A stretch of DNA of 62,627 nucleotides, the filler included, from Collodictyon triciliatum (taxonomy: Eukaryota): the NCBI GenBank assembly GCA_043381765.1. It is 9 parts of 9 records of this genome, joined end to end, with 100 filler letters (N's around TTAATTAATTAA, not from the genome) between each part and the next. Parts side by side here need not be neighbours in the genome. Positions count along the whole stretch, not along the records: positions 6,601 to 13,119 come from JBHJMP010004420.1; 8 more parts are not named here. The stretch is one strand, 5' to 3'. A model generated the notes under the pieces. The model saw nothing but the letters and a program-made list of their open reading frames with translations, did no database searches and was not told the origin of the DNA. The position numbers and the translations under genes were made by a program. Shown piece after piece: positions 6,370-56,021 of the stretch. Numbering within the stretch: the first letter of the stretch is position 1; each line of letters begins with the position of its first letter.

Positions 6370-6400
6370 GTCTTGCCCATTTCTAATTTTGGACCCACTT

Positions 6401-6500
<100 letters not shown>

Positions 6501-6600: not shown

Positions 6601-6924
6601 TATAAATCCGCCACCAAGCATGCATTTCAAAAAAGCATACTATCCACACTTGCGGCGATAATCATGTCGTTTGGGGCCGATATCTTAACTTTCAGTCGCA
6701 ATGGCTGTACGGCCGTCCTTTCGAACTCGCCGAATCGGCTCAGCGTTTTGTCTCAAATCATCATTTGTGAAAAAAACTTTGTGTTTGTTTGCCACAATGT
6801 GCACATTTTGAGCGTTTCGGTAGATGCTTAATTTTACATAAACTGACTTTATACAGTTTTTTATTTTATATAATCAAATTGACTGATTGACTTATGTTTC
6901 ATTAGAATTGAAAACTCGGTAGTT

Positions 6925-7227
6925 TTCTAAAGAAAAAGTAAAACAAAGACTTTCAGATGAAGAAAAGAAAACGTCTTGAGTCTGAGAGTCTAAAGTCTGT
7001 AGAACCAGACAATTGAAATGTGAAAACATCTTTAAAGTCGATTGTAAAGAATCTGGATGACTATGAAGAAATCAACGATACGGTTTTATTGTGTCATAAT
7101 TTGGTTACCGACACTTATCTATTTGCAAGATGTTACATATTGAAATCACAACAACTCCCAACAACCGATGAAATTTTTTTTTGTACCCCTTGAAGACAGT
7201 CGGAATAGTTTCACAAGATAGACTGGC

Positions 7228-7263
<36 letters not shown>

Positions 7264-8880
7264 AGATATGAGAGACGACATGATGACTTTTTATCTCTAC
7301 GATTTTCGATTCCTTTTGTCCCAAGAAGAACGCTTTCCGTTGGTTGGACTGTCTCGTGTATTATCGTACTTGGCGAAGCAAATGTTAACAACTTATCATA
7401 AAAATATTAAGTAGCATTTTTGCAGAGGTTACTGCGCTTTATAAATCAAACAGTTCCTAAAGATGAGTATGTTACGGAACCTATTAAAAAAAAAGGCAGA
7501 GTTACGAAAGTTAAAAAAAGTCATCTTCAATAAACTCGAAATACCGGAACAATATAAATAATGGGCTAAAATACATTTGCATCATATCATTCCCAGCGAT
7601 ATTGTAAAAGGTATCGAATATGACGTCAAAGTCAATCCAAATAAGTACACTCCATATCTGATTTACATGAATTGCATTTTCGAGGACATTGTAACCAAAC
7701 TGCTTCAACCAATCTCTATAAAAGCTGCCAATATACCATGGCATAATACTCTAGATACTGCACGTTTGATATATATTAGTATCATCTGAAAAAAAATCAT
7801 TAATGAAGAATTATCAGGATGCAAAGAGACCTATGGAATAAGTTCTTTGAAATGAAGAAGAGGGTCTTTCATCAAATAGACTACAATTTTAAATGCATGA
7901 TACAAACAGACGGCTTGGCGGTGTCATTATTATTTAAAAAGAAAGGTATTTCAAATTCAAGATTCAATTTAATCAAAAAACCTAAGAATATGTTTATATA
8001 GATGAATTTTCCGAAGAGCAGTTATCTTTATCAGCGGAAAAAAAATGGTTGGAGTGGACGCAGGCAAGTTTAATTTTGTTTGCGTGATGGATGAGACAGG
8101 TAAGAAATTAAATTATACGGCACACCAAACAAGACATGATAGCAAATCTCTTAAAAATCACAAAATACTCTTGCGCAAGAAAAAAAAGTACAATGCTTTA
8201 GGGACATGCATGACAATAGGTTTACAAAGTGCCATTTCTTTTGGTCTCAGGACTTTTGAAGAGAATCAGCGGTTTGAGACATCAAAAGTATCTTTAATCG
8301 ATTAGAGACAAAACTGAGTAAACATAATTCATGCGCGGTCGATTATGAGAAATTTCGGAAATATTTGTCTATGAAATCAAGATGCCAGATAGGATTATCC
8401 ATATTTTATGAACATGTAACTATTCGAAAGATGAGATGGAGACAGTATGTTGATGCAAAAAGAAGTGAAGAATTGTCTACGGACCGAATCGAAAAGACAT
8501 TGGGCAAGGATGTTGTACTGGTGTATGAAAACTGGAGCAGAAAATCTCTGATGAAACATTTTATGCCATCAATCGGAAGGGGATTACAAAAAATACTAAC
8601 CAAACGTTTTGAAGCAGTTAGTGTAAATGAATTTAGAACCTCCAAGGTGTGCTGCAACTGCGAAAACGAACTGGAATATATGAGACTGAAAGGTAATACG
8701 AAAAAAAAAGTGTATAGATGTCGCATATGTAAAGAATGCAATCGGTCAGAAAGCAAACAAAGTGTATTCTTGACAAGGGACTTTAACAGCGCCAAAAATA
8801 TGCTCAACGAAGTTCTTTCAATCCTTCAAAATATGCATACATTTTCATCTAAAAAAAATAGGCTGTTGGGTCTTTCCTAG
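6925..8880 (+). pseudogene. Fanzor1 (TnpB-like RuvC nuclease), about 640 codons, frameshifted and with premature stops
   Basis: N-terminal KTSLKSIVK; IQTDGLAVSLLF; RuvC-I VGVDAGK; RuvC-II region YENWS...PSIGRGL...VNEFRTSKVC; Zn finger CCNC...CKEC; RuvC-III TRDFNSAKNM. Confidence 0.85.
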
Positions 8881-8955
8881 CAACCTTTACCACTACACAG
8901 TCTTTGTGAAAAAAGCGGTGAGACCTTGGATACTAGCTGAACCAGTTTACTAATC
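8855..8955 (+). ncRNA. Candidate Fanzor omegaRNA scaffold (copy A)
   Basis: Non-coding tail conserved with copy B. GGTCT (8869-8873) can pair with AGACC (8921-8925) and encloses nested TTACCACT/AGCGGTGA and CACA/TGTG stems. Confidence 0.5.
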
Positions 8956-9369
8956 GAAAAGTTGTTACGCTCATCCTGGTATATAAAGATGACAATTAAT
9001 GAGCGAGGTACTTACACATTCTATTAGTTTCCCATCGCGCAAATACCTTGGAACGTGGTGGAATGAGAGAAAGGAAAAGAAATAAAATAAAATATAAGGA
9101 GAAAAAAAACGACGCTGCTCTTGAAAAACCTGGTATCACCTCAATTGGAAAATGAATTAGAAGATTTTTAGACACGAATAGTTTGTTGATTTTTTTTTTT
9201 TTTTTGGCCCATTTTTCAAGAGGCCTGCATCCCCTTACTTAGAATCGAATAAAGAAGAAAAAAATAGGTGCCTGCGTCCACGCATTGGCATTACCACACA
9301 TCTTGCCAAAAGAATTGGTTGCTGGAATGGGCTCCAGACCTTCTTAGTCTCGGGCAAAAAGGAAGGTGA

Positions 9370-9452
9370 TGACAAGAGTGGGATTTGAACCCACGCCCAC
9401 AGAGTAGACTGCGACCTGAACGCAGCGCCTTAGACCGCTCGGCCATCTTGCC
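9370..9452 (-). tRNA. tRNA-Leu(CAG)
   Basis: GGCAAGATGGCCGAGCGGTCTAAGGCGCTGCGTTCAGGTCGCAG...GGGTTCAAATCCCACTCTTGTCA: cloverleaf with long variable arm and A and B boxes; T5 terminator at 9356-9360. Confidence 0.97.
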
Positions 9453-9466
9453 CTTCTTGGCTTTCT

Positions 9467-9691
9467 TCCAATGGTTATAATAATATATATTGTATCTAAC
9501 TTTTGTGTTACTTTTTGCCGGGTTTAGGAAGTACCTGTGGGTGTTTCGCAAAACGCATCTCTCCAGATTCAATAGCATGCAATCCCACGACCACCTCCAA
9601 ACACACCAGAGCCTTTGCTCCAATGGTTATAATAATATATATTGTATCTAACTTTTGTGTTACTTTTTGCCGGGTTTAGGAAGTACCTGTG
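9467..9691. repeat. 73-bp exact direct repeat (9467-9539 and 9619-9691) upstream of the tRNA, abutting a gap
   Basis: Identical sequence at 152-nt offset. Confidence 0.9.
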
Positions 9692-10406
9692 NNNNNNNNN
9701 NNNNNNNNNNNNNNNNNNNNNNNNNNNNNNNNNNNNNNNNNNNNNNNNNNNNNNNNNNNNNNNNNNNNNNNNNNNNNNNNNNNNNNNNNNNNNNNNNNNN
9801 NNNNNNNNNNNNNNNNNNNNNNNNNNNNNNNNNNNNNNNNNNNNNNNNNNNNNNNNNNNNNNNNNNNNNNNNNNNNNNNNNNNNNNNNNNNNNNNNNNNN
9901 NNNNNNNNNNNNNNNNNNNNNNNNNNNNNNNNNNNNNNNNNNNNNNNNNNNNNNNNNNNNNNNNNNNNNNNNNNNNNNNNNNNNNNNNNNNNNNNNNNNN
10001 NNNNNNNNNNNNNNNNNNNNNNNNNNNNNNNNNNNNNNNNNNNNNNNNNNNNNNNNNNNNNNNNNNNNNNNNNNNNNNNNNNNNNNNNNNNNNNNNNNNN
10101 NNNNNNNNNNNNNNNNNNNNNNNNNNNNNNNNNNNNNNNNNNNNNNNNNNNNNNNNNNNNNNNNNNNNNNNNNNNNNNNNNNNNNNNNNNNNNNNNNNNN
10201 NNNNNNNNNNNNNNNNNNNNNNNNNNNNNNNNNNNNNNNNNNNNNNNNNNNNNNNNNNNNNNNNNNNNNNNNNNNNNNNNNNNNNNNNNNNNNNNNNNNN
10301 NNNNNNNNNNNNNNNNNNNNNNNNNNNNNNNNNNNNNNNNNNNNNNNNNNNNNNNNNNNNNNNNNNNNNNNNNNNNNNNNNNNNNNNNNNNNNNNNNNNN
10401 NNNNNN

Positions 10407-10915
10407 CGAAACAGCCGGCGAGATTCTTCGATTGACACTCAAGACGGCTGCGGCTGTTGGCCCAATCCAGGCGATATTTGGGCCTCTGCAACAGCTGCGT
10501 CCAGACGCAAAAACATTCTGAACAGTGACGCGAGGCCATTTGCTATGGACTATGTGGATAGCGCGCATTTACTCACGCAAAGTAAGCCTCAACAACCAGC
10601 CACCCATTCCTGATAATAGGTTGGATGACATCATACAAATCTCTTTCCCCAATAGCTTCCTTCGCCACCTGCACGTTCTCTACTACTCAGACCCTGTGAG
10701 AAGAGACATGTGGAAAGAGACTGAGAAAGATATTAAACCTCGCCTTGTATCTCTCATGCAAGCACAAGACTCTGGCTACAGGCCAAAGCACAGGATGCAA
10801 TTCCTGATTACGGACTACTTCTCCGCCACCCGGCCAACAAGCAGCGTTTGTGCAAATGATGGCTAGAAAATAAAAGCCTAAATCTTCTTTTATACTTACA
10901 AATCAGAAGAGTAGG
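10407..10915 (+). mobile_element. Non-LTR retrotransposon (L1/Tx1-like) ORF2 3' fragment
   Basis: Near-identical to 57416-57930 (ETAGEILRLTLKT...LLWTMWIARIYSRK); contains a premature stop. Confidence 0.8.
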
Positions 10916-11289
10916 ATATAAATACTCGTAATAATTCAAATTTACTCGAAGGGTTGCATTATCAAAGGTATTTTTCTTTTGGTTGATTTTTAGTATAACG
11001 ATGACTTTATAACCTCTAGTATGATTTATTTATCGAGTTTCTCATGGTTAAGTTGTCTAGTAGCGATGAGCAGAACGATTCAGAGGGACAATGTCTTTTG
11101 TTTCCTAATAGGTATAGGTAGGGTAACTGCGTCGTAGTGCGAAGAAGGGTGATTTTGTCCACATAAGAAGAAAAGATAACACAACATGATAAAAAAGCAT
11201 AAAAATCGCCACAATATCTCTTCTAGACAAAAAAAAACACAACAAATATGTTTTTTTTTAAAAAAAAAATCAGCAAAATTACAGCAAAC

Positions 11290-12957
11290 CTCAGCTCTGC
11301 GGATTGGTAAGCGTTCGGTATCACAAAGTAAGTCACCCTTGCGAAGAGCATGTCCATATGCTAGTGCATTTTGCATTTGATTATGCTGCTTCTGCTCGGC
11401 CTTCATTTTTTCGTGGGTGGCCTCCAATGCAACACTTTCAATTAGCATTTCTCGGCGTATAGAAGTGATTGTGCGTAAGAGCCCCGCTGTTGAAGGTTGT
11501 TGGCTTGACATAGAGTTCAGTGATATTACAGACTCGAGTGTGTGTAAGTTTGTCATATCTGTTGGGCAGTTTTGTCCCTACGTTTGTGTTTGTTAATTTG
11601 TTTTGTTTTTGTTTTACCCTATGTTCGATTCAATGGTGATTATTGATTATTGATTATTGATTATTGATTATTGATTATTGATTATTGATGATTGATGATT
11701 GATGATTGATGATTGATGATTGATGATTGATGATTGATGATTGATTATTGATTATTGATTATTGATTATTGATTATTGATTATTGATTATTGATTATTGA
11801 TTATTGATTATTGATTATTGATTATTGATTATTGATTATTGATTTTTATTCCGTGTTTATCACGTCTTTTGTCTTATCTTTTATTCCTTATTTGTTTGCA
11901 TTGGGTTTCAATATTAATCTTTGTACAACTTGACTGTTCTGAAGAGTTGCATCACATGCACGGTGAACTCGACTGTTCCATTCGACATCCAATTCGTCAA
12001 GCGTCTGACTGAGGCGTTTGTATTCAGATTCCAGTCGACTACAATGGTATGTTTACTTGAGCATATTATTGCTGTTCTAGGGTACTTTTCTTAAATGTAA
12101 TATTTCGAAAGCCACTTTTTTTATAGCTGTACATTATTAAATAAATTGAGGAACCCTCATACTTTTGTATTTTTTTATATCGCAAAGCTTGCTGTTCGAT
12201 CTGGTATAATTGCCTCTCTATTCGGGCGCAATCATCCTCTAAGTCTGATGTGCAAATTGCCAAAGCACTGTATAATTAGACATCAATATAGAATCTGGGT
12301 AAGCTATTTCCAACTTCGTTTTTCTTTCTGTTTGTTGCATCTTTGTCATATTTTTATAATCCTTTAGTCATTTTGAAATGAAAAGACATGATATACCAAT
12401 CGGCATCATCCACAGCACTTGGGTCACAAATCTGAAGTCCTGCTTCAGGGTCGCCTGTACTGTCTGACCCTAGCACTCTTTGTTTTTTCTTGTTTGAAAA
12501 ATTGGCCCTTATCTTTGATTCATTCTACGTGAAGTTATAGAAAAATGGCTTTATCAGAAAAAGATGAAAGAAATCTGTAAATTTGCACAGGGAAAATAAG
12601 AGGGAGAATGTTTGTGTCAAAATATCGACGTGAAAAGAAGGAGCATCTTCTTGTGGGAACGTTGAGCCATGAAAACTTATTGTTAAAGATATAGAAACAT
12701 GTCTTTTTGTGTTTTACTATGTTTTATAGGCATCTTTCCTTTCAAATAAGTGCTATCCCACAACTCGCCATCATGCAAACATCGCACTTTGTACGACTAC
12801 TGAATGGCTACGTATCAAGATATGCAGCTTTGTTGTTCGTATTGATTGGCACTTACCTCTCTTCGCTGGAGTTCCTGCTCCAAAGCGTTTATCTGTGCGA
12901 CCAGCATTTTCCCTTCTACTTGCCCTTCCTCTCTTTTTTCCATCGCTGGTCGATTCT
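11290..12957 (-). CDS. Multi-exon coiled-coil protein of unknown function, partial
   Basis: Open exons with GT-AG ends (QINALEQELQRRE; LEDDCARIERQLYQIEQQALRY; RLESEYKRLSQTLDELD). No recognised domain; boundaries approximate. Confidence 0.5.
11636..11843. repeat. 7-bp minisatellite (GATTATT/GATGATT) in an intron
   Basis: Visible array. Confidence 0.95.
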
Positions 12958-13232
12958 ATGAAGTGGAAGCGGGGTTAAGTACCTTTTTAATTGTCTCTCT
13001 TTTTCTCTCTCCCTTTTTTTAAAATTCTTTTCTTTTCTTTTCTTTTCTTTTCTTTTCTTTTCTTTTCTTTTCTTTTCTTTTCTTTTCTTTTCTTTTCTTT
13101 TCTTTTCTTTTCTTTTCTTNNNNNNNNNNNNNNNNNNNNNNNNNNNNNNNNNNNNNNNNNNNNTTAATTAATTAANNNNNNNNNNNNNNNNNNNNNNNNN
13201 NNNNNNNNNNNNNNNNNNNTTGCTTTCTCTAC

Positions 13233-23848: not shown

Positions 23849-24252
23849 AAAACTCTGATCCGTTCTTTGTCGATCGGGCGTGTTGGTGTGTTTGTGTGTT
23901 GCGCGGCGGACTCGTCGAGGATTTCGCTGGGCGTGATGGCCTGTGATTTTTGTTTGATGGTGCAGGACTGCCTCTGTGGTACGGAAATATATGTCATGGG
24001 AGATATCTCGTGACACAATTACCACATCTCTCTTCGCTTGCGGTCGGAGTAGCAAAGGATGCGGGTGTGTTTCAGCAGGCTGTTCAGGAAGCTGTATTGC
24101 ACGAGGCTTTCAAGCCTGGATACATTGATTTCTCGTTCAGTCGAATCATTAAAGAGAGAACGCACGCAGACTCCATAAGGACCACAACATATGTCCCCTT
24201 GTGATTGTCCAGAGTATTCTAGAGTCGTGGGTCATTTGGCTTTGACCGCTCT

Positions 24253-24914
24253 CCAATGCTTAATATCACCAATAGGGAGCTATGAATAGGCACACACGCG
24301 GCAAAAGCTGGCAAGGTCTCCCAACAATGCACACTTTGCAGCAACGGTAATGAATCCATTGAGCACACATTTGTGCAATGTCCCTTCGCTCAAAACCATG
24401 CGCAAAACAGCCGGCGAGATTCTTCGACTGACACTCAAGACGGCTGCGGCTGTTGGCCCAATCCAGGCGATATTTGGGCCTCTGCAACAGCTGCGTCCAA
24501 AGGCAAAAACATTCTGGGCAGTGACGCGAGGCCATTTTCTACGGAATATATGGATAGCGCGCATATACTCACGCAAAGCAAGACTCAATAACCAGCCGCT
24601 CATTCCTGATAATAGGTTGAATGACATCATACAAATCTCTTTCTCTCAACAGCTTTCTTCGCCACCTGCACGTTCTCTACTTCCCAGACCCTGTGAGATG
24701 ATACATGCGGAAAGAGGCTGAGAAAGAGACTCAACCTCGCCTTGTCTCCCTCATGCAAGCACAAGACCCAGGCTACAGGCCAAACCGCAGGAATTAATTC
24801 CTGATTACCGATTACTTCTCCACCACCCGGCCACCAAGTAGCGTCCGTGCAAAGGATGGCTAGCGAACCAAAGCCAACATCTCCAACATTTCGCACAAAA
24901 TTGAAAGGAGGATA

Positions 24915-25008
<94 letters not shown>
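24253..25008 (+). mobile_element. 5'-truncated L1/Tx1-like ORF2 fragment ending in (TAA)n
   Basis: Matches 57264-57930, including the CTLC...EHTFVQC Zn knuckle; (TAA)n starts at the ORF2 end (about 24912). Confidence 0.85.
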
Positions 25009-30040: not shown

Positions 30041-30203
30041 CACGCAAAAGACCGCAAGTCAGCGATCAATCACCAACAACAAAAATAAAGCCAAGAAATC
30101 AGTGGGCACAAAAGCCTTCCTGGAAAAAAGGTTGGGAGTTGAATATGCTACTCAGTCAACAATTTCTTAATTTTTTTCCTTGCCAAGGAGAACAGACCTT
30201 CGC

Positions 30204-32742
30204 ATGGAGTGCGAGTGTAACTGCCCAGGGTGTCTGAAGGGATTTGATCACACCAACAAACTCCCCTGCGGACATGTGTTCTGCAGAAATTGCGTGTCCA
30301 CGATTGAAGAATGTGCTAGAAAGCGGAAGGAGAGCCCCAGCTGCCCTCTATGTCTTTGTGTGTTTAAAGCCGCCGAACAACACCGACCGCATCCCAGGTC
30401 AGAGTATCACGATGAACTTATCTCTATGGTCAAACATGAAAATCTAAAAATATGCGTCGATTGCGGTGGAGCCCCATCGCTAGTGTGTGAGGATGGATGT
30501 GGCTTCCTTTGCGAAGATTGTCAAGAAAAGTACCATTCTAAGCAGAGGAGGACCTCAGGACATAAAGTGAAGTATGGCTTAGGTTTTTTAAATAAAATAA
30601 TTGAAAAACATGATAATTCATTTTATTTTCCCTATTTAGTACTGAAAAGTGGCACGATTGATATGAATTTTTTTTTTCAATGTACAGCCAATTATTTAGT
30701 AACCTGGAATGAATTAAATGACTAGAACTCTGTTGGTTGCTGGTGTATCAGGAGTGAATCCAAAGGAATGTATTTTCCATAAATTACCCATAATATCGAC
30801 ATGTCTCCACTGCTGGCCAATAACTGAACTATGCTTGCAATGCGAACGAGATGACTTGAGGAACAATCCCGGTCATAGGCACTTGGAAATCACAAAGTAC
30901 AAACTTTCTTCGTCTCGGGAGAGTGAAATGCATGAAAATATGCAAAGAGTGATTCTCCAAATCAATATTAGGAAAGAACATGCGGAAACCCAATTAAAAG
31001 AAGTTTGTCATCATAGCCGTTGCGCGTATATATATTGCATTCCAAAATCCAAAATGAGCTTAATTGTGTACTAATATAAACGGACTGCTACTAGATATCG
31101 TTGGAAGAGGAAAAAGCATTAGAAGAAATCAATCAGTTTTATGAGGTGACGATGCAAAAAGTTACACACCTCAGGGATAGTCTTTACAATGCGGTATGTA
31201 AAAAAGTAATATTTGATGGACGAAGTTTTAAACGTAATTATTCTCTTATATTCAAGCAATCTAATCATTTACAGAAAGGTGACTAAACATATCCTGCTTC
31301 AGACAAGGTGTTATTTCAAATCGAAGAGTGACCAACTGGAATCCATTCGAGAACAGATGGATATTACTGGGAATATATTTGAGCATTCGATACTGATGTT
31401 GAGAGAATCAAGAGAAGTTTTCGAAAGGGATGCCATCCCAACAAAACTGGCCAAATTCGAAGGACTTTTTGAGAAGTTGATGTGCTTGACTATAGTAGAT
31501 GTGGAAGATGCCTCTTTTGAGGATAGAGGAGATAAGAAATTGCTAGAAAGGGACATTTTGATATGTTCAAGTGAAGCAAAATTGCTTGACGTTCCCTATA
31601 AAATCATGCAAAAAGACCATGAAGATATCTGCTATCAGTTGAAAAAAGTGATGGAAGCATACACCGAACTCAGTGACAAGATGATGGAAGAAGGAAGCAA
31701 ATTAGTGGAATCACAAATGGCAATAGAACATCTTCAATCCGAATTGAAGGATTTCAGAAAAGCTGAAGCTGAGAGGGTTCAATCCGAGATGTTGGTCGAG
31801 AAAATGAAAATGGATAAAATGCATGCAATCAAGGAATTCTATCAGAGAAGCTGGAATTATGGCCTTCATGAATATAGGCACCAAAGGAGTATTGGATCAA
31901 ATGGTGGAAGACAGCTGCAGTTCTTCTATCCATATGGCATCGCTGTTCATCCCAAAACTGGGCACATTTACGCGGCAGACTCCAACAACAATCGCATCCA
32001 AGTCCTCGACCAAGACCTGAATTTTATTCGTATCCTAGGCGGCTCAGGGTTGGCAGCTGCCCAGTTTGATAAACCGTATGGAATATCTGTATCGTTTGAT
32101 GGACTCGTTGCAGTTAGTGAATTGAACGGCAACCGAGTTCAGATATTCGATGAAACAAACAGTGTGGTCGCGGTCATCCCATCAAGGCAAAGTAGAAACC
32201 CTTTTTCATCACAAGCTACACACTTTGATGGGTTTTCTAGCCCTCGATACATTTGCTTCGATAAGGAAGGAAACCTTTTTGTTGCAAATTCGAATAACAA
32301 CCGAGTGGATAAGTTCAATCACTCTTTCGAGTTTGTGTGTTCTTTTGCTCATTCATCGAAGGGTGAAATAGGGGTCTCGTCCCCTATGGGTGTTTGCTAT
32401 ACGTCAAAGAATGAGATTTGTGTTGTTGGATATTGCGGATATAAGGTAAATTATTATGACACAGACGGAAGATTCATAAGGAGTTTCAAGATTCAAAAAC
32501 TTAATGGTGATGTCTCAATTGCTGAAGGCCCGGACGACACAATATTGGTAAGTGATTGCGCAAGTAACCAAATAATTGCGTACAACCCGACAAGAGGAAA
32601 TCCTGTCCATACATACGGCTCGACATACTACGGCAGTAATGATGGTCAATTCTACCTGCAGGCTGGGATTTGCTTCGGCAAAAACCAGAAGTTGTATGTG
32701 TGCGACTGTTGGAATCATCGCTTACAAGTCTTTTCGGCTTAA
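30204..32742 (+). CDS. TRIM-NHL-like protein (RING, two B-boxes, coiled coil, NHL repeats)
   Basis: CPGC...LPCGHVFCRNC...CPLC; CVDC...CEDGCGFLCEDC..YH; NHL repeats FFYPYGIAV...YAADSNNNRIQV and LYVCDCWNHRLQVF. Confidence 0.88.
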
Positions 32743-33699: not shown

Positions 33700-36600
33700 T
33701 TGGAGCGCGAGTTTCAAGAGGTTTTATTCTGAATTTCCACTTTCTACAGCAGAAATCTACATATTCTTCTATATATTTCTTTTTATAACAGTATCGTTTG
33801 AGAATAAATCCCTCAAATTTAATCAATCAAAGATTTGCGTAGTAGACAGCTTGTTTTTTCACCTTCATTTATTCACTCACTATTTTTTTTTTTGTTTCTT
33901 GGCTTCTTTGTTTCTTTTTCAAGAGTGCTTACTTTCCATGATTTTCCGTACCACAGATTTTCACTGAGCTTGTCTCAGAAAAACACTTGGAAAAGTTTCG
34001 GATCGAGTACGAGAAACTCCATCGCGCACTGAAAAAGTCTCATGAGAGCGAAAAAAGACTGATAAAAAAGTGTCGCGAACTCAACACTGAAATCGTGGCA
34101 AACACGGCAAAAGTCCAGACAGCTGTAAAAATGTCGCAGGAAGACCAAAACACCATTTCTAGTTTGAAAAAGGTGATTCTACTTCCCCCAATCTTTCCTT
34201 CCTTCCTCTCTTCCCTCTCTTCCCTCTTTTCCCCATTGAACACATAATTGGACTCCGCGCTTCGGATTACAAAATGTGCGATATAGATTGCATAATAAGA
34301 CCTTTCCTGGTTTTTATTCCTTTTCCTTGCGTTTCATCTTCTGGATGTGATTTATTCTATCGATATCATAGGAAATCGAGAAAGGATGGAAGCTGGTCGA
34401 TCAGTCCCATGAGAAAGAGGCAAAGGCCCGAGATTCCATTCAGCAACTGAAGGTAGAAATCAGCAATCTCAGCAAGATGGTGGAGCAAGGGGCAGGTCTG
34501 ACCTTGGGCCAGGAGCACAGTGTGAATGAACTATTAAAAGTGAAGGAAGAGCACACAAAAGGTCTGTAGCCATGCATCGCAATTACGATACATATTCTTG
34601 TTCACTTTTTTTTTCCAAAGCTTTCAGGGCATCATTCAATCATAAAAATTAAGATGAACATGAGGTTCAATCCATGTTAGCCTCCATCACTTGTACTCTT
34701 CGTTTTTAACACAAAATGGAACACATTAAATGCAGAACGGGATGAGCAAATGAGCAAAATAGTCGCCTTCCGAACACAAATCACAGAATTGACAGAAAAA
34801 ATCAGAATATTGGAGGGCGAAAAAATATCAGCGGAACATGATATTCACACTCTGAAGGAATTGATTGCATCGAAAAAGGCCGAGTCAGATCGTGAACAGC
34901 GGCGCAAAGAAAGACTTGAGAAAGAACTAAAAGCATGTCTTAGTCTCATAAAATTATGAACCTGATTACAAAACAGCCTTCTATGAAATACAATAAATTA
35001 ATAGTTTTTGAATAGCAATATTTGATCACTGATTGAATTTTTTCATCTAATCTGATACATGAACTAATATGTATAGGACTTGAAAGTAATTCTGGAGAAT
35101 CGACAGTTAGAAATCAAAACAAAGCAGGCTCAAATCGTAACAAACAATGAGCAGATCACTCGCTTGGACCACCAAATTCGAGACCAAAAGAATCAATCCG
35201 AAAAAGCACTCAAAGAGCTTGACTCTCTGAACCAGAAAATCCTGAAGATGCAGCAAGACCTTGAGGACCAAATTCATAGCAACACACAGTTACTCACTGA
35301 AAATTCACAACGTCATGTGGAGTTGAAGGGAAAAGAAGAGGAAACGATTCGTGTTCGCCAAGAAGCCACCAAGATGGAAAAAATGCACGAAAATCTTGTT
35401 CGCAAAATGCAGACGCTGGAGGAGCAAAAGGTTCAGGTGGAGGGCCAAAAGGAGCAGCTCAAATTGGAGACCAGTCACATCGAAAGAGAAGTCGAAATCA
35501 TGGCAAAACAAATAGAAGGCGATAAGAAATCCTTGGATGATTTGATGCGAGAGCGTGACATTCTCAACAAGAATTTGCTCAAGGCTGCTAGTGCCACACA
35601 GCGGCAGGCAGATTTAGTTAAAGTACAGGAAAACACATTGAAGAACCTGGAACAAGAAATCAACGGATACAAAACCGAGGCACAAAGACAACGAAAGGTT
35701 TTTTTTTATTTTTTGCTTATTAACCATTCAATTTTCTACAAGGGGTTATTCTGTTTTTCATTAAAAAGAATTGTACTACGTCGCGAGCCCAAAGAAAATT
35801 ACCCAATTAAACTTGAGTTTACTTGGTTTACTGAAGATTATATTCCAACTGGAACGAGACCGAGAAAAATACGATGAAGAATCAGCAGCAGCGACATCGA
35901 AGTTTTTGCAGGCTTTGGAGGAGGTGAAAATCAGAGACCTTGCAATAATGGAATTGCAGAAGAAAATTGCCGAGGGAGAGACAAAGCTGAAGCAACAGCA
36001 GGTATGATAGCTGAGGCAATATATGCACGAAAACAACTTTTGGCTGCCTTATTCATGCATGAATTAATCGTAGGACTTGTTGACCATTTCGCTTACTCAT
36101 TCACTCAATCAATCCCTTTTCCTTTTCCCTTTTTCCTCTATTTCCTCTATTTCCTCTATTTCCTCTATTTCCTCTATTTCCTCTATTTCCTCTATTTCCT
36201 CTATTTCCTCTATTTCCTCTATTTCCTCTATTCCCTCTATTTCCTCTATTTCCTCTATTTCCTCTATTTCCTCTATTTCCTCTATTTCCTTTATTTCCTT
36301 TATTTCCTTTATTTCCTTTATTTCCTTTATTTCCTTTATTTCCTTTATTTCCTTTATTTCCTTTATTTCCTTTATTTTCTTTATTCCCTTTTTTCCTTTA
36401 TTTCCTTTATTTCCTTTATTCCCTTTATTCCCTTTATTCCCTTTATTCCCTTTATTCCCTTTATTCCCTTTATTCCCTTTATTCCCTTTATTCCCTTTAT
36501 TCCCTTTATTCCCTTTATTTTCTTTATTTCCTTTATTTCCTTTATTTCCTTTATTTCCTTTATTTTCTTTATTTTCTTTATTTCCTTTATTTCCTTTATT

Positions 36601-38897
36601 TCCTTTATTTCCTTTATTTCCTTTATTTCCTTTATTTTCTTTATTTTCTTTATTCCCTTTATTCCCTTTATTCCCTTTATTTTCTTTATTTCCTTTATTT
36701 TCTTTATTTCCTTTATTTTCTTTATTTCCTTTATTTCCTTTATTTCCTTTATTTCCTTTATTTTCTTTATTCCCTTTATTTCTTTTATTCCCTTTATTTC
36801 TTTTATTTCCTTTATTTCCTTTATTTCCTTTATTTCCTTTATTTTCTTTATTCCCTTTATTCCCTTTATTTCCTTTATTTCCTTTATTTCCTTTATTTCC
36901 TTTATTTTATTTATTTCCTTTATTTCCTTTATTTCCTTTATTTCCTTTATTTCCTTTATTTCCTTTATTTCCTTTATTTCCTTTTTCCTTTTTCCTTTTT
37001 TCTACACAACAGACTTTGTATGAGGCTGTGCGCTCAGATCGTAATCTATACAGCAAAAATTTAATTGAATCGCAAGAGGAAATATCGGAAATGAAGAGAA
37101 AATTCAAAATCATGAATCATCAGATCGAACAGCTGAAGGAGGAAATCAGCTCCAAAGATTCTAGTAAGAATTTGTGTTGAGATTTCCTTCACCGCTAATA
37201 CATGCGTACTTCAAATTTTGCGATATTGTGAATCTATTTGTTTACTTGTTCTCTTTCTTTAACCATTTTGTTTTTAGCTCTTGTAAAGGAGCATTTTGAG
37301 CATATGAAGGTTGATAAGGAGAAAGAGAACCTCAAGAATGAACTTACAAGAATCAAGAAACAGATCGACGAAGCAGAGCAGGTGATGGCTCTATTAAATG
37401 ATTATTTTTTCTATCTCAATCGTATTTTGATGGTCTCTGTATTGATAGACGAATCCTATTACAGGATTGTTTGTCACTCATTCAATTCTGTGTAGGCCAT
37501 AAGTCAACAAAAGGCTGAAATCCAGAAACTGAACCACATCATCAATGAAGCTGATGCTGAAAGGATTCGACAAAAGAAAGAATACGAGATGGTCATCAAC
37601 GAAAGAGTACGGATTTTGACTATTTTCTTTCATGATTCTCGATGCAACAGTACCACGTCTGATATAATTGGATTTCCTATCGATATTCCAATATTTTAAG
37701 CAAGATTACTTGTTTGCATAGTGTATATTTACATAGTTCTATCATCTCCTAGTAGTAATCACACATTTATTAAACTGCCTATCTAGGATATCCTGGGAAC
37801 TCAATTAATTCGCCGAAATGAAGAGCTTGCTGTTCTCTATGAGAAAATCAAAATCCAACAAAGCACACTTACTAAAGGTGAAATCCAGTACCGCCAACGA
37901 TTGGAAGACATTCGCATTCTCAAACTGCGTGTCAACGATATCAAGAAGGAACTTCATATGCTCAAGTCTCAAGTGAAGAACATTGATGTGCTTCGAAATG
38001 AAGTTTATCATCTACAGAGAGAGTTGCTGCAAGAGCGAACCAAAGTAAAGGCTCTCAGCGAAGAACTCGAGAATCCGATGAATGTACATCGATGGAGAAA
38101 GCTAGAGGGGTCTGACCCAGCTTCGTACGAAATGATTCAGCGAATTCATTCGCTCCAGCGCAAGCTGATATCAAAAACAGAAGAGGCATGTTTCTCCGGC
38201 TATGCTCCAACAACATTTGATATGTATTTGTTTTATGCTATGCTAATTCGTAGAGAATCTTCTCTACAAGTCGAACTTGAGCTTGGAAGATATCCACCAA
38301 CTTCGATTTATATTTTTATTCTTATTATCATTATTATTCATAACCCATATACATTCTAGATTGTTGAGAAAGACTTACTCATCCAAGAAAAAGAAAAACT
38401 TTATGTGGACCTGAAAAATATACTTGCACGCCAGCCCGGACCAGAAGTTGCAGAGCAATTAAATATTTATCAGCAAAATCTCAAGGAAAAATCGAAGCAA
38501 TTGAAGGTAGGTTGTGTTACGGTATTTCCTATTTCATATTATTTCCTTTTGAAACTCATTTCTGTTTCTTCTGTGTTCCCCGTATTAAGTTTTCATTTGA
38601 AAATCAGGCCATGGAGGGCGAGCTGAACATGTACCAAGGGCGAGTCCGAGAGTATAAAATGGACATTGAGAGGGTTGACAAGGAAATGTACGCACTGAGG
38701 AATCGGTATTTTGAATCAAAGAGAAAAGAACAAATAAGACGGTAAGGTTTACTTTCGATAAAGGAAAGGCATCTTTTCTCTCCACCTTTCACCAATCTTT
38801 TTTTTTTAAGCGATGCATTACTCACGCACAATTTTTCAAATACAGCGAGAAAGAGAATGCCGAAGGCCTTCAAAACTCCCGGTGGATACTCTCATAA
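33700..38897 (+). CDS. CFAP58: Cilia- and flagella-associated protein 58 (start lies in the gap)
   Basis: LEKFRIEYEKLHRALKKSHESEKRLIKKCRELN, LYEAVRSDRNLYSKNLIESQEEI, ELLQERTKVKALSEELENPMNVHRWRKLEGSDP, LKNILARQPGPE. Confidence 0.95.
36130..36985. repeat. About 850-bp 9-mer minisatellite (TTTATTTCC and variants) in a CFAP58 intron
   Basis: Visible array with block-wise variants. Confidence 0.95.
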
Positions 38898-46857: not shown

Positions 46858-47700
46858 GAGTCTCGGTGTCTATGGCCTACTCTAAATTCTTTCGACACAA
46901 AACATCGCCATTGACACCCTGAAAAGGTCAAAACATCATTGATGGGATAATCCCTGGGCACAATCCACACCCTGCTCACTGCAAGCTAAATATAAACGAG
47001 GATGTCGCAAGTAATTCCAAATCTTCACTTTCTAATACTTAATTTCACCAATAGGGAGCTACAGACAGTTACAGGCGCAGCAAAAGTTGGCAAAGTCACC
47101 CTAAAATACATACTTTGTAGCAACAGTGATGAATTCATTGATTACACATTTGTGCAATTTCCTTTTACTCAAAATCTTTACGAAACAGCCAGTTAGATTC
47201 TCCGGTCGACATTCAAGACGACTGAAGCCGTTGGTCCAATCCAGGCGATATTTGAGCCTCTACAATAGCTTTGTCCAGATGCGAAAACGCTCCGGACAGT
47301 AACACGAGGTCAATTACTGTCGAATGTAGATAGCACGCAAAATGCTCATACAAATCATAATTCAACAACCAAACACGCATTCCTGATAATAGTCTGGATG
47401 GCATCATACAAAACTCTTTTCTCAGCATCTTCCTTCGCAAATTGCATATTCTTTATTACTCAGACCCAGTAATAAGATACATATGGAAAGTAGCCAAGAA
47501 AGAGATTCAACCACGCATTGCCCGTCACGCAAGATAAAAGGCCCAGACTGCAAGGCAAAAAAAAAACAGGATGCAATTCCTGATTACCGACTACTTCTCC
47601 GCTACCCATTACCCAATAACGTCCACCCAAACAATGACTAGAGAATCATAGAAAATATCCTAATCATCTGGCACTTATTGAAAGAAATAATAATAAAAAA
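46858..47700 (+). mobile_element. Old, diverged L1/Tx1-like ORF2 3' fragment
   Basis: Colinear with 57087-57930, with many substitutions and stops. Confidence 0.8.
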
Positions 47701-49957: not shown

Positions 49958-52098
49958 TATAAACCTGCCACCAAACATGCATTTCAAAAAAGCATACTAT
50001 TCACACATGCGTCGGTAATCATGTTGTTTGGGGCCGATATATTGACTTTCAGTCGCAATGGCTATACGGCCGTCCTTTCGAACTCGCCGAATCAGCTCTC
50101 AGGGTCTTGTCTCAAATCACTCATAAAAAAATTTGTGTGTCTGTTTACCACAAAGCGCATATTTTGAAAGCCTCGGTAGATGCTTAATTTTACATAAATT
50201 GATTTTATGCAGTTTTATTAAATCGACTTATAGATTGACTAAAGTATTATTAAAATTGAAAACTCGGTAGTTTTCTAAAGGAAAAAGTAAAACAAAGACT
50301 TTCAGACGAAGAAAAGAAAACGTCTTGAGTCTGAGAATATAAAGTCTGTAAAACCAGACTGTCGAAATGTGATAACATCTCAAAAGTCGATTGTAAAGAA
50401 TGCGGGTGACTATTAAAAAATCAACGGTACGGTTTTATTGTGTCATAATTTGGTTACCGACACTTATCTGTTTGCAAGATGTTACATATTGAAATCACAA
50501 CAACTCCCAACAATCGATGAAATGTTTTTTGTGTGCCTTAAAGACAGTCGGAGTAGTTTCACAAGATAGATACGCAAGTTTAAAACATCCAGATACGACC
50601 TTATATATTATGAATTTTATCTCAATGATTTTCGATTCCTTTTGTCCCGAGAAGAACGCTTTCCGTTGGTTGGACTGTCTCATGTATTACCGTACTTGGC
50701 GAAACAAATGTTAACAGCTTATCATAATAACATTAAGGAGCATTTTGTAAAGAGGCTAGTGCGCTTTATAAATCAAACAGTTCCTTTGAATCGAATAAAG
50801 GAAAAAAAATCAAACAGTTCCTATATATGAGAATATGACAGAAGCTATTAAAAAGGCAGAGTTACGAAAGTTTTAAAAAAAAGCCATCTTCAAGAAACTC
50901 GAAATACCGAAGAATATAAAAGATGGACTATAACGCATTTGCATCGTATCATTCCCAGCGATATTGTAAATAGTATCGAATATCACAAAGTCAATCCAAA
51001 CAAGTACATTACATATCTGATTTACATGAATCGCATTTTTGAGGACATTGGAACCAAGCTACTACAACCAATCATTACAAGATATACAATATGCCATGTC
51101 ATATTACTATAGATACTGCATGTTTGATATATCTATTAGTATCATCTGCAAAAAAATCATTACTGAAGAATATATCAGGATGCAAAGAGACCCTATGGTA
51201 TGATTTCTTTGGAATGAAGAAGAGGGTCTTTCATCAAAGAGACTACAATTTTAATGCATGATATAAACAGACAACTTGGCGGTGTCATCATTGTTTGAAA
51301 AGAAAGCTATTTCAAATTCAAAATTCAAATATAACCAAAAACCCAAGAATGTATTTATATAGATGAACTTTCCAAAGCGCATTTATCTTTATTGGCGCAA
51401 AGAAATAGTTGGGGTGGACGCAGGCAAGTTTAATTTGGTATACATGGTGGATGGGACAGGCAAGAAATTACATTATACGGCACACCAAACAAGACATGAT
51501 AGCAAATCTCTTGAAAATCACAAAATACTCTTGCGCGAGAAAAAAAGTACAATGCCTCAGGGGTATACATGGCAATAGGTTTACAAAGTGCTATTTCTTT
51601 TGGTCACAGGACTTTTGAAGAGAATCAGCAGTTTGAGACACCAAGAGTATCTTTAGTCGATTTAGAGACAGAACTGAGTAAACATAATTCATGTACCGTC
51701 AATTATGAAGAATTTCGAAAATAAGTATCTATGAAATAAAGATACCAGATAGAATTTTCCAGATTTTATGAACACGTAGCCTTTTGAAAGATGATATGGA
51801 GACAGTATGTTCATACAAAAAGAATTGAACAATTGTTTATGGGCCGAATCAAAAAGACATTTGGCAAGGATGTTATACTGGCGTAAGGAGACTGGAGCAA
51901 ACAAACTGTATTCTTGACAAGGGACTTTAACAGCACTCAAAATATATACTCAAGAAAGTTCCTTTAATACTTCAAAAATATACATACACCTCTTTTTAAA
52001 AATAGGCTGTTGGGTCTTTCTTGGAAGCCTTCACCACTACACGACCCCTATGAAAAAAGTTATGAGACCTTGGATACAGCGAACGAAGTTTACCAATC
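49958..52098 (+). mobile_element. Fanzor1-type element, copy B (pseudogene with internal deletion)
   Basis: Colinear with 6601-8955. Keeps IVGVDAGKFNL, GDWS and TRDFNS but lacks the EFRTSK and Zn-finger block. True 5' end unknown. Confidence 0.85.
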
Positions 52099-52494
52099 TT
52101 TATATTAGTTTACTATATAAATATAATTAAACTATATATGTAGTCCTATTGAAAATTAGACGAGTTCTGCGTTTCTCAGAGAAAAATGTATAAATTCCGC
52201 ATTAGAATAAAACGATTGAATGTTTATGTGGTCACGTGGGCTTATAAACTTACTTGACGGCCGACATGTCATTCTATTCCTTGCGTCCTGGTATATAGAA
52301 AGTGCACGATCGTCTCTGTAAGACCACGCATCCGACTCTAGACATGCACAAGCACCATCTCACACCGATCTTCATAGACTGGATTTGTATTTTTGCTCAA
52401 CAAAATCATTTGCATATTTTTTTTTTTTTATCAGCTTTCCACACCGCCTAAACCATGCTCGACCAAAGTCGCAGAAAAGCTGAGTTCTCTCAAG

Positions 52495-55400
52495 ATGTCC
52501 AATCTGACTGCTCGTATGGAGGAGCTTCGGAAATTAACTGGAGATGACAGCATCTCAGTGTTGCTGTGTCGCACACAACTGAATCTCGGATATAAAAATC
52601 TTACCTCTGTCCCACAAGGAGTCTTTGACTTGGGCCATTCAGTCAGATTTCTGGATCTTTTCAGCAATAGGCTGTCATTGCTGCCCCCAGAAGTGTCGCG
52701 ATTGGCGGGTCTCACATACCTTAATATTCGCTCCAACCCAGTATGGCTCAATTATCGTTTGTATGCCTCTATGTTTGCCTATTTGTTTAGTTGTTATAAA
52801 CACTTTGGTATTTGTCAGCCATACCGCAAAATAATGTGAGCCAACAATTCTCATAGATGGAAGCGCTCCCGTCACAAATCACAGCGCTTACAAATCTAAA
52901 GGTGCTTGTGATTAACAATGGCAATATGCAGACGATAAGGAAAGCACCCCGAGGTATTACCAACCTCCCGTGCTGGAGCAACTCTGGACAATACGATTTT
53001 CAACATATAAGGGACCTGGAACTGTATGACCATGTGAGTGATACAGAGTCGAGTATGAAATCTGTTGTAATATATTATTATGATCACTTTTGCTTTGTTC
53101 TGCAAGCAACTAACCTACCTGTTTGATAGGTGGAAACCGTACCTGTTGTCACAATAGCAGAGGTGGTCGGAACGAGTACAGAAGTCAGACAGGCTAACGA
53201 AAATAGGAAAACTCAGAGGGCTCGTAAGTTTGCAGACACTGAAGAGACCCCAAAGACTAAGAAAGCCATGCTGGACAAAGACGCTCAGCAAAGTTTGATG
53301 TCTGAAAGAGAGGTAAAAAAAAAAAAGAAGAAAAAACTCCCAATAATACGACTATGTGCAAAGAGCATGTTATAAAAGTATCAGAATTCTGACGTCCTCT
53401 TCCCATCTTCCTGAAAATAGATGCGGTATGTTCAAACTAAAGTGACTTTCCATCCAGGTTTGATTCTAAATATCTTGTTGGAAATATTTAAATATAACAT
53501 AAAATAAAACTAGACATGCTCACACACGTTGCATAGACCCAACAAAGACAAATCATAGACCCTTTTCAGAGGGTGAAATATTTACCTTACAGTCACCTAT
53601 AGCAGGAGGGTAAGTTTGAAATGATGTTTGATAATAAGAGTTCATACAATGCATTTTGGATGAAGATGTCTTCATATATATAATCGAAACGGAACAGGGC
53701 ATTCAAGGTCAAAAGCAGCGACGGAGACTTTTACATCGACCAGGCACATGCCAAGGTGCTAAGTCCAGGGTCTTGCGGAAATACATCTCCTAAGGGTAAA
53801 ATCTCATCTTCTTACTAGTCTCTTTTGAGGCATTATTTCAATGTCATTCTAATCATAATATTACTTACCAGACCAAAACAAGAGAAGGCATAAACTGGCA
53901 CATAGGAAAACGATGGTAGATAAACAAAGTCATAGTGGTGCTCCTCAAGCAAAGACCATGGAAATTGTGGTAACATCCCATTAAATAACTGGCAGATACA
54001 TATGAAACCACAGGCCACATGCCTAAAACACTCATTTCAGAACGAGCAAGAGGCCTATGTCACCGAGATCGAAATCAACGCCTGCCTCAGCGGAACCCTA
54101 TGCAGTGTGTGCATCGCCAAACATAACAGTCCAAGTCTCTTGCCATGCCAGCACGCATTCTGTTCCGATTGTATCAGGACAGTTATCGCTAATTCAAACG
54201 AAGAGCCACCGATTAGATGTCCGGTATGTGACGAGCCTGCCTACGTGGATATGAACACAGTAAGTGAGCTAAAACAATTAGACTACGACGTAGCCTCCTT
54301 AGGAGGAATGAGCGTTGCCATGAATACAGAAAAGGACCTGGGAAATGTCACAGTGCTTAAATGCAGAGGAAGAAGTTGTCAAAACGATGCCACGAATTAC
54401 TGTGTTGTCTGTGGTGAAAAAGGTGTATTCTGTGAAACACATAGTGATATGCACGTAGATGTCAATGAAGAAAATCACATCATGAAGTAATTATTTGATC
54501 ATTATTTCACCAGAATTGAACCTAATTGTCCCATACAGATGTTATATTCTATCAGTTTGATGATTGATTACGTCTATTTCTATGGGTTTTTTTTATATTA
54601 AAAACAACAACAACAATCAGGAATCTCGTTTTTGGGACTGTACCAAATGTAAATACAGAGAAATGCCCAATTCATAAAAGCAATTTGATTGAATTTTTCT
54701 GTCCATCTTGCCCTGAGTCCCCATTGAAGTGTGCCAAATGTGCCTTAGAGGACCGTAAACACCTGGACGATCACAAAGAGCTCGGAAAGCAGAAATTATA
54801 TGCCAACACTGTCATATGTAATAAAATAGAAGAGCTCTGTGAGTCTGAGAGAAAACTCGGACCAAATATAGAGTTCGTCGAGAAGCAAATAAGAGAGGTT
54901 ACAATTTTGGGTTTTTTTTTGCACTACAAACAAATAGGAAACAATGATAAATACGTATAGAAACAATATTAAATAAATTTGTTCATCACAAGATGTATAA
55001 AAAATACATCAATTTTATTAACTGTGTCACATAATATCAGGTTATCAAGCACCACGAGCAGAAAACTTTGGAGCTAGACGATTATATCAAAAACCTTGAG
55101 GCCATACTTCAGCAATTCAAGACAAAGTCAAAAAAAGAAGTACATAGCCATTCTTTTTTTTCAATTACTATAACAGTCAGGATATGTTTTTTTTTCTTCT
55201 AGTTTTATTTTACTCACTTAATCAAAAAACTAGAATCATCAACGAGGAAGTAGAGTAACAATGTTTTTTTTAAATATATTATTACCCAGCTCGAAGCGTT
55301 GAATCAGTCCGCACTCGCACCACTGAAGGACTCACACAATCAGCTTTTAACTGTAATGCGCCGAATCCACATCGCCAAGCGAACCCTGCGCAAGCTGTTT

Positions 55401-56021
55401 GAAAAGCCCGAAGGCGAATGCTCACTGGTTCAGATGAACAACGCACTGCGCTTCGCAAACCAAGTCCTTTATTCCAAACAAGACACGCTAATTGAAATTG
55501 CCCCCCTTAGCTTCGTCTCGAGACTGCCACGAAGCATCCTGGAAGACCTGGGCAGCTTGAACGAGACATTCATGTTTGGGCTTGGTTCCACCAGCCCGGA
55601 AAACATAGAAATCGGGATTAGGCACGCCAGGATTGATTCTTTTCATTCGATTATCACATTACCCAGGAGTATCGAATCCATCCCCACTGTTTCGATCGAC
55701 TCTTCGACTGGTGGTGCCCGAATCGAGTGTCCGTGGGCGGTTTGTGTGCACCCACAGAATGGTAGGATATATGTCACAGATGAAGATCTGCAAAAAGTCC
55801 ATATCTTCAACAACGACCTCAGCCATGTTTCATCCCACCACACCGGACTCATCATCCCAAAGGCTCTTCACGGGCCAAGAGGAATCGCCATCTCCAACGA
55901 TGGCCTCATTGCGGTTGCAGACTGCGAAGGCCACTCTGTGAAGCTCTTCACCGACCAGCTCACGCTTGTCAAGACCATCGGCGGAAAGAAGGGTAAGGAG
56001 AACGGCCAGCTCAATCGCCCA
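52495..56021 (+). CDS. LRR + RING + B-box + coiled-coil + NHL protein, partial (may be two genes)
   Basis: LRRs (FLDLFSNRLSLLPPEVSRLAGLTYLNIRSNP); RING CSVC...LPCQHAFCSDC...CPVC; B-boxes; NHL PRGIAISNDGLIAVADCEGHSVKLF. Confidence 0.75.

Follow-up and report, generated by a model that had tools for sequence, protein, structure and literature searches.

The stretch of DNA analysed here (the window: 62,627 nucleotides, filler included, from Collodictyon triciliatum, assembly GCA_043381765.1) very probably contains two fossil copies of a single repeated unit that carries a dead Fanzor1 gene. Genes of the Fanzor1 kind are well-known transposon passengers in eukaryotes. The window consists of about ten slices of ~6.5 kb with spacers of the form N44-TTAATTAATTAA-N44 between them, and copy 1 lies in the slice 6601-13119. 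On the evidence of their sequence both copies are dead, neutrally evolving pseudogenes and not a working nuclease element. An earlier note on this DNA had described a Fanzor1 nuclease element at copy 1; its assignment to the Fanzor1 family is upheld by sequence, profile and fold (below), but its reading as a working element is not, since both copies are pseudogenes.

The repeated unit and the decay of its gene

The earlier note had also claimed a second copy in the window, and blastn agrees, aligning 6601-8547 with 49958-51907 (83.8%) and 8752-8955 with 51896-52098 (80.8%). The same two loci were found by tblastn with P0001, an intact relative of 648 amino acids (aa; see below), which gave E 5.6e-170 for copy 1 and E 2.4e-103 for copy 2 (50309-52021) and matched no further window locus at E ≤ 0.01; similarity of this degree lies far outside what chance would give. 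The homologous unit extends from at least 6601/49958 to about 8958/52104, that is, to ~78 bp beyond the stop at 8880, and after that point the flanks of the two copies differ. The unit is at least 2.35 kb long and is made up of at least 356 bp of upstream sequence, the Fanzor1 gene and the ~78-bp 3' tail. Because the slice of copy 1 starts at 6601, the unit can be followed leftwards only to that point. The parts of the two units and the motifs of the gene are as follows (residue numbers are those of the family, with conservation taken from a 34-sequence alignment, A1, described below):

6601..6956 (+), upstream sequence of the unit in copy 1; apparently non-coding
6957..8880 (+), Fanzor1 pseudogene, copy 1; ATG at 6957, two in-frame stops, ~9 frameshifts
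6957..6974 (+), basic N-terminus MKKRKR, possibly a nuclear localisation signal
7906..7914 (+), TDG motif of the WED domain, within IQTDGLAVS (7900-7926)
7984..8037 (+), segment out of frame relative to its flanks in both copies (shared frameshift)
8048..8065 (+), RuvC-I, VGVDAG; catalytic Asp kept, family DPG reads DAG
8623..8646 (+), VNEFRTSK; RuvC-II glutamate in the alternative (rearranged) position, just ahead of the zinc finger; E555 invariant in A1
8650..8739 (+), zinc-finger cysteines CxxC...CxxC; CCNC at 8650-8661, CRIC/CKEC at 8719-8739
8776..8799 (+), RuvC-III, RDFNSAKN; R603 and D604 invariant in A1
8881..8958 (+), 3' tail of the unit, copy 1; shared with copy 2 until about GTTTACTAATC
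49958..50305 (+), upstream sequence of the unit in copy 2; homologous to 6601-6956
50306..52021 (+), Fanzor1 pseudogene, copy 2; ACG start codon, at least seven in-frame stops, ~9-11 frameshifts
52022..52104 (+), 3' tail of the unit in copy 2; shared with copy 1 until about GTTTACCAATC

When 6957-8880 is read from stop to stop, about ten pieces tile a single protein, the longest open piece of copy 1 being the 200 codons of 8278-8880. A frameshift-aware alignment of copy 1 with P0001 spans 6957-8915 and has 377 identical codons among 635 aligned (59%), which, with the tblastn value above, bears out the ~640-aa protein that the earlier note had rebuilt from fragments in different frames. Along this alignment there are nine frame changes (near 7173, 7412, 7477, 7772, 7824, 7984, 8037, 8303 and 8860) and two in-frame stops (TGA at 7014 and TAA at 7559), counts that vary with the alignment penalties chosen.

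The motifs reported earlier (VGVDAG, VNEFRTSK, CxxC...CxxC and RDFNSAKN) are all present at this locus, and D364, E555, D604 and the TDG are all found in copy 1. The earlier claim that the catalytic D/E/D residues are retained thus holds for copy 1 but fails for copy 2, in which a deletion (204 bp by blastn, 216 columns in the MAFFT alignment), with its junction near 51896-51907, has removed the RuvC-II glutamate and the zinc finger. Copy 2 retains TRDFNS of RuvC-III, and its TDG is mutated to TDN. Its RuvC-I reads VGVDAG (51408-51425) as in copy 1, so that Pro is replaced by Ala in both copies; in A1 D364 is invariant and P365 at least 90% conserved, and DPG is given as a signature of the clade in a passage of PMC10711439. 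T312, D313 and G314 of the family (the TDG) are invariant or nearly so in A1, and a passage of that paper names the TDG as characteristic of Fanzor1. VNEFRTSK aligns with IDEFRTS of PpFz1 and LDEYKTS of SpuFz1, and an alternative RuvC-II glutamate of this kind is described in parts of PMC10530073 and PMC10711439. Lysine-rich N-termini were present in the ten relatives inspected, and N-terminal nuclear localisation signals have been described for Fanzors in a section of PMC10530073.

Are the differences between the two copies those of a gene that was still under selection? By codon position they number 78 of 557, 68 of 558 and 64 of 558 at positions 1, 2 and 3 (14.0, 12.2 and 11.5%; chi-square p 0.42), and the coding part (87.6% identity) has diverged to a similar extent as the non-coding sequence upstream of it (298 identical bases among 345 aligned, 86.4%). 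The evenness over codon positions and the like divergence upstream argue that all of the divergence between the copies was neutral. The two stops of copy 1 are substitutions not common to both copies (TGA 7014 against CGA, and TAA 7559 against AGA, in copy 2), so a variant genetic code does not rescue the frame.

One of the breaks is older than the split between the copies. The peptide that matches P0001 residues ~340-356 (YVYIDEFSEEQLSL / CIYIDELSKAHLSL) lies, in both copies, in a frame that differs from the upstream TDG frame, and the copies align without an indel over the first frame change of the 7984-8037 segment. A shared frameshift without an indel between the copies, together with DAG in both, means that their last common progenitor was already broken. 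We infer that the copies arose by duplication of the dead unit or by its mobilisation in trans (in trans because the nuclease is not a transposase): a progenitor with the frameshift and the DPG-to-DAG change would have been duplicated or mobilised, and both copies would then have drifted neutrally to ~12-16% divergence. A pair of copies that descend from a broken progenitor gives little ground for the idea of the earlier note that an intact or consensus-rebuilt nuclease may be recoverable from a multicopy family.

Assignment to the Fanzor1 family

A search of the Protein Data Bank (PDB) with the 200-aa piece 8278-8880 gave PpFz1 (E 9e-9), SpuFz1 (3.7e-5) and, weakly, GtFz1 (0.13), the alignment to solved Fanzor1 passing through the xEFRTSxxC motif; the 99-aa RuvC-I piece alone had no meaningful match in the PDB. 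A word-indexed search with the 200-aa piece returned one long relative, P0001, which is 66% identical to it, comes from ENA/JGI metagenome contigs of ~2.6 kb, and itself matches GtFz1, PpFz1 and SpuFz1 with E 2e-28 to 4e-23. A total of 1410 cluster representatives reached E ≤ 1e-3 in an exhaustive HMMER search with the window piece, 394 of them ≤ 1e-10; many of the 1410 are 600-700 aa long, and 34 make up the family profile and alignment A1. Compared with solved structures, the 34-sequence profile matches, over almost their full length, PpFz1 (5.9e-97), SpuFz1 (5.1e-94, over profile positions 4-608) and GtFz1 (8.2e-78). The only other matches at E ≤ 0.01 were two LaTranC chains (~0.005), and no TnpB or Fanzor2 chain among the solved structures was matched at that level.

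The comparison by structure prediction that the earlier note had proposed was run on intact P0001, and it too pointed to Fanzor1. The AlphaFold model of P0001, built with the family alignment, has a pLDDT of 83.7 and a pTM of 0.82; it matches SpuFz (9ceu) with E 9.5e-27 and TM scores of 0.73/0.78, and PpFz and GtFz are matched as well, whereas against Fanzor2 (9b0l) and TnpB (8h1j, ISDra2) the TM score is ~0.2. PF26935 is a precomputed domain listed for P0001, and it was not reported by the Pfam search made here. The reading of the window copies as a Fanzor1-family gene is well supported by sequence, by profile and by this predicted fold of an intact relative.

Copy 1 has the same domain order and catalytic set as the solved Fanzor1 proteins SpuFz1 (8gkh, 9ceu), PpFz1 (9cf0) and GtFz1 (9cer), with which it shares the RuvC-I Asp, the alternative glutamate before CxxC...CxxC, the RuvC-III Asp, the TDG and the basic N-terminus. 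The predicted P0001 fold compares with theirs at TM 0.65-0.78 and at only 17-20% sequence identity in the structural alignment. Unlike the solved proteins, the window copies are broken and have DAG for DPG, and neither an omega-RNA nor transposon ends were detected with them. TnpB (of IS200/IS605 and IS607) and Fanzor2 have the RuvC fold, the zinc finger and the RNA-guided mechanism in common with Fanzor1, and PMC10530073 and PMC10711439 describe the alternative-glutamate arrangement for Fanzor2 and some TnpB proteins as well; but the TnpB and Fanzor2 chains compared are far shorter (362-466 residues), have the low TM score to the P0001 model given above and have no profile match at E ≤ 0.01.

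What would the intact gene have done? Its working form would have encoded a ~640-aa omega-RNA-guided RuvC endonuclease, and genes of this kind are passengers in eukaryotic or giant-virus DNA transposons. Such a nuclease would bind a scaffold RNA whose template is the 3' end of the nuclease gene together with the right end of the transposon; the scaffold would run into a short guide, and the nuclease would cut matching DNA beside a short motif, cutting that is thought to aid persistence of the element. We infer this RNA-guided mechanism for the working form from solved and assayed relatives; the window copies in their present state could not cleave DNA in this way. A guide-RNA scaffold would be expected at 8881..8958.

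Intact relatives on metagenome and giant-virus contigs

A locus finder that used a 5-protein alignment found 425 relatives in the JGI metagenomes; in IMG/VR it had 377 pattern matches, of which 282 were confirmed as relatives. The best 80 of each set were kept (L001-L160); single-protein scans of the viral and metagenome contig sets with P0001 gave no match. Many of the IMG/VR contigs are named GVMAG (giant-virus metagenome-assembled genomes), and one contig of 254 kb is common to both sets; the giant-virus label rests on the IMG/VR contig names and the neighbouring genes, which include ribonucleotide reductase small chain, PIF1 helicase, ankyrin proteins and kinases. The fetched relatives are nearly all intact, intron-less, full-length open reading frames (ORFs) of 613-656 aa on densely coding contigs of up to 254 kb, and they are 38-47% identical to P0001 over ~600 residues (44-47% for the best from IMG/VR). 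The group closest to the window lineage is L001-L003, L081-L084 and L091.

A transposase with DDE_3 and HTH_28 (IS630/Tc1-mariner-like) is present in the flanks of 42 of the 160 fetched loci, and in the closest group a DDE_3 transposase lies directly upstream of, and divergent from, the Fanzor1 gene (L002:3638-4678 (-) and L001:3645-4676 (-)). Downstream, in 614 of 1111 pairs of members (from the 80 metagenome loci kept of 425), homology breaks off abruptly at 80-99 nt after the stop. In the main subgroup of 18 sequences, RNAalifold folds the last ~150 nt into a conserved structure of 30 pairs, 6 of them with compensatory changes. One helix encloses two local hairpins; the structure also has another hairpin and a long-range helix in which the invariant terminal GGTGTAAA is paired. 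With all 36 relatives RNAalifold gave no pairs, because subgroups misalign. The 3' element ends in an invariant GGTGTA ~84 nt after the stop; examples are L002:5001-6905, with its 3' region running to about 6990, and L022:6765-6911. The Fanzor1 reRNA is described in a passage of PMC10711439 as three-stem and pseudoknot-free with a terminal double-stranded stem, and the structure at the 3' end of the relatives fits that description. These giant-virus and metagenome loci belong to the same Fanzor1 clade as the window copies; they are intact and have the GGTGTA-ending 3' element and, in the proportion given, DDE_3, whereas neither element was found beside the window copies.

One member of the closest group has a second ORF 4 kb upstream of its Fanzor1 gene (L001:49-876 (+), 275 aa), with a Cas12f1-like TNB domain at 39.7 bits (cut-off 26.3).

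Alternative explanations, surroundings and meaning

Several results weigh against reading the window as two fossil units with a dead Fanzor1 gene. Besides the penalty-dependent counts of stops and frameshifts, the frameshifts at 7173, 8037 and 8860 fall within or next to stretches of 8-9 identical bases and are possible assembly errors. The profile and fold evidence comes from intact P0001 and the family around it, and not from the broken protein of the window, and Pfam profiles of the TnpB type stay below their cut-offs: Cas12f1-like_TNB has 16.8 bits (cut-off 26.3, E 0.0075), over residues 112-174 of the 8278-8880 piece, and OrfB_IS605 has 18.0 bits (cut-off 30.5, E 0.0035). The alignment to Fanzor/TnpB RuvC profiles that the earlier note had set as its test thus had a mixed outcome, significant for solved Fanzor1 but sub-threshold for these Pfam families. 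Neither the ends nor the mobility gene of a transposon was seen. Terminal inverted repeats between the upstream region and the 3' tail did not beat shuffles (60 of 200 and 69 of 200 shuffles as good); Pfam gave no family at E ≤ 1 in the four of four frames tested for the upstream part of copy 1, and none that passes threshold for that of copy 2, the sole row for the upstream 350 bp being DUF7807 (E 0.18); tblastn with the L001 and L002 transposases gave no match in the flanks of either copy (best E in the window 2.7); and a hidden Markov model of 23 transposase relatives reached at best 3.2 bits, with no DDE_3 relic seen. Since neither ends nor a transposase is found in the visible flanks, the past of the unit as a transposon in this genome is presumed. 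As for a guide RNA, the fold of 8700-8960, the 3' region of copy 1, is no better than that of shuffles (z -0.98), and the covariance model R1 had no match at the 3' ends (≤1.8 bits for copy 1 and ≤4.7 bits for copy 2), a miss that is weak evidence since R1 was built on relatives ~39% identical in protein. The best window match of R1, at 9124-9263 (+), ~170 nt past the end of copy 1, had 19.7 bits (E 0.11) and was judged to be chance because it is T-rich and absent beside copy 2.

On another reading the gene is alive and its frame breaks are assembly errors, such as miscalled homopolymers in long-read data. The three of nine copy 1 frameshifts in or beside such runs, the final 185-200 open codons and the intact D/E/D and zinc finger of copy 1 are as a living gene would have them. 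We nevertheless consider this highly improbable: the stops at 7014 and 7559 come from base substitutions and not from errors of length; six frameshifts are outside homopolymers; substitutions are spread evenly across codon positions; one frameshift is common to two independently assembled loci; and copy 2 has at least seven stops and a ~210-bp deletion. That the gene is a prokaryotic TnpB or a Fanzor2 (from an IS607-type element or bacterial contamination) and not a Fanzor1 is scarcely credible. The weak OrfB_IS605 and Cas12f1-like_TNB matches lean that way, but the family profile matches Fanzor1 alone among solved structures apart from LaTranC, the P0001 model has far higher TM scores to SpuFz1 than to Fanzor2 and TnpB, the ~640-aa protein has an N-terminal REC-type extension that aligns with Fanzor1 from residue ~4 to 608, and the surrounding slices hold intron-bearing eukaryotic genes.

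A separate question is how the unit came to be in this genome. The copies could be endogenised giant-virus DNA, passed from virus to host, and not the remains of a host-resident transposon family. Relatives of known context are overwhelmingly on IMG/VR contigs, many of them GVMAG; these contigs are intron-less, densely coding and as long as 254 kb, and the neighbouring genes named above also speak for such an origin. The window itself argues the other way, and we regard endogenisation as unlikely: the flanks are host-like (tRNA-Leu after copy 1; leucine-rich repeat (LRR) and RING/B-box/NHL genes after copy 2), no virus-type gene was seen in the slices of either copy, and the same 3' boundary of both copies in different flanks looks like that of a discrete repeat unit; moreover, the contig of the closest relative, P0001, is 2.6 kb long and its origin is not established. 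The two window copies are in our judgement best explained as fossils of one repeated unit, as stated at the outset. A wider reading, which we offer tentatively and hold to be possible though rather doubtful, is that these pseudogenes are fossils of a Fanzor1 lineage that mainly circulates in giant viruses of aquatic protists, on IS630/Tc1-mariner-like elements and with a compact, strongly conserved omega-RNA ending in GGTGTA, and that the host copies record virus-to-host or host-to-virus transfer.

The slices of the window hold intron-bearing eukaryotic genes for cytoplasmic dynein heavy chain, CFAP58, a GYF protein and a MIZ finger, as well as the two RING/B-box/NHL genes described below. Two EukProt transcriptome proteins match a CFAP58 exon with 74% and 59% identity; among named animals and algae (corals, tunicates, echinoderms and a green alga) identity does not exceed 54%. 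The protist genome of the earlier note is plausible on these data. A tRNA-Leu(CAG) lies at 9370-9452 (-), ~410 bp downstream of copy 1, and nothing but tRNA was matched by Rfam at the gathering threshold. After it comes a ~152-bp direct repeat (9484-9691) that leads into a gap of 715 N, and at 9370-9691, tRNA and repeat together, the assembly may have collapsed a tandem array of tRNAs. Downstream of copy 2 are an LRR gene and a RING/B-box/NHL gene; the window has two RING, B-box-like, coiled-coil and NHL-repeat (TRIM-like) genes, at 30171-32742 (+) and 53936-56021 (+) in ~60 kb, and their nearest named architecture matches are sponge proteins at ~30% identity. Another repeat family occurs in four slices (10409-10885, 24242-24919, 46861-47698 and 57093-57934) at 74-91% identity; its 209-codon open frame at 57303-57932 is without a Pfam match, and the family may be the tail of a retroelement or of another mobile element. 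Long microsatellites of the types (AAT)n, (TTC)n and (CATA/TGTA)n are found at 6400-6500, 24700-24900, 36100-37000 and 59200-59300, and such runs in the window give rise to long spurious open frames.

As it stands the dead pair matters little, since it adds one host lineage and no new mechanism; it does correct the over-optimistic reading of the earlier note, in that the element is not active. The live relatives in giant-virus metagenome-assembled genomes, with their well-defined 3' RNA structure, are a sensible start for obtaining a nuclease from this clade. If the giant-virus lineage reading were true, its intact viral members, which are ~615-650 aa long and have a scaffold with clear limits, would offer themselves at once as candidates for new RNA-guided nucleases.

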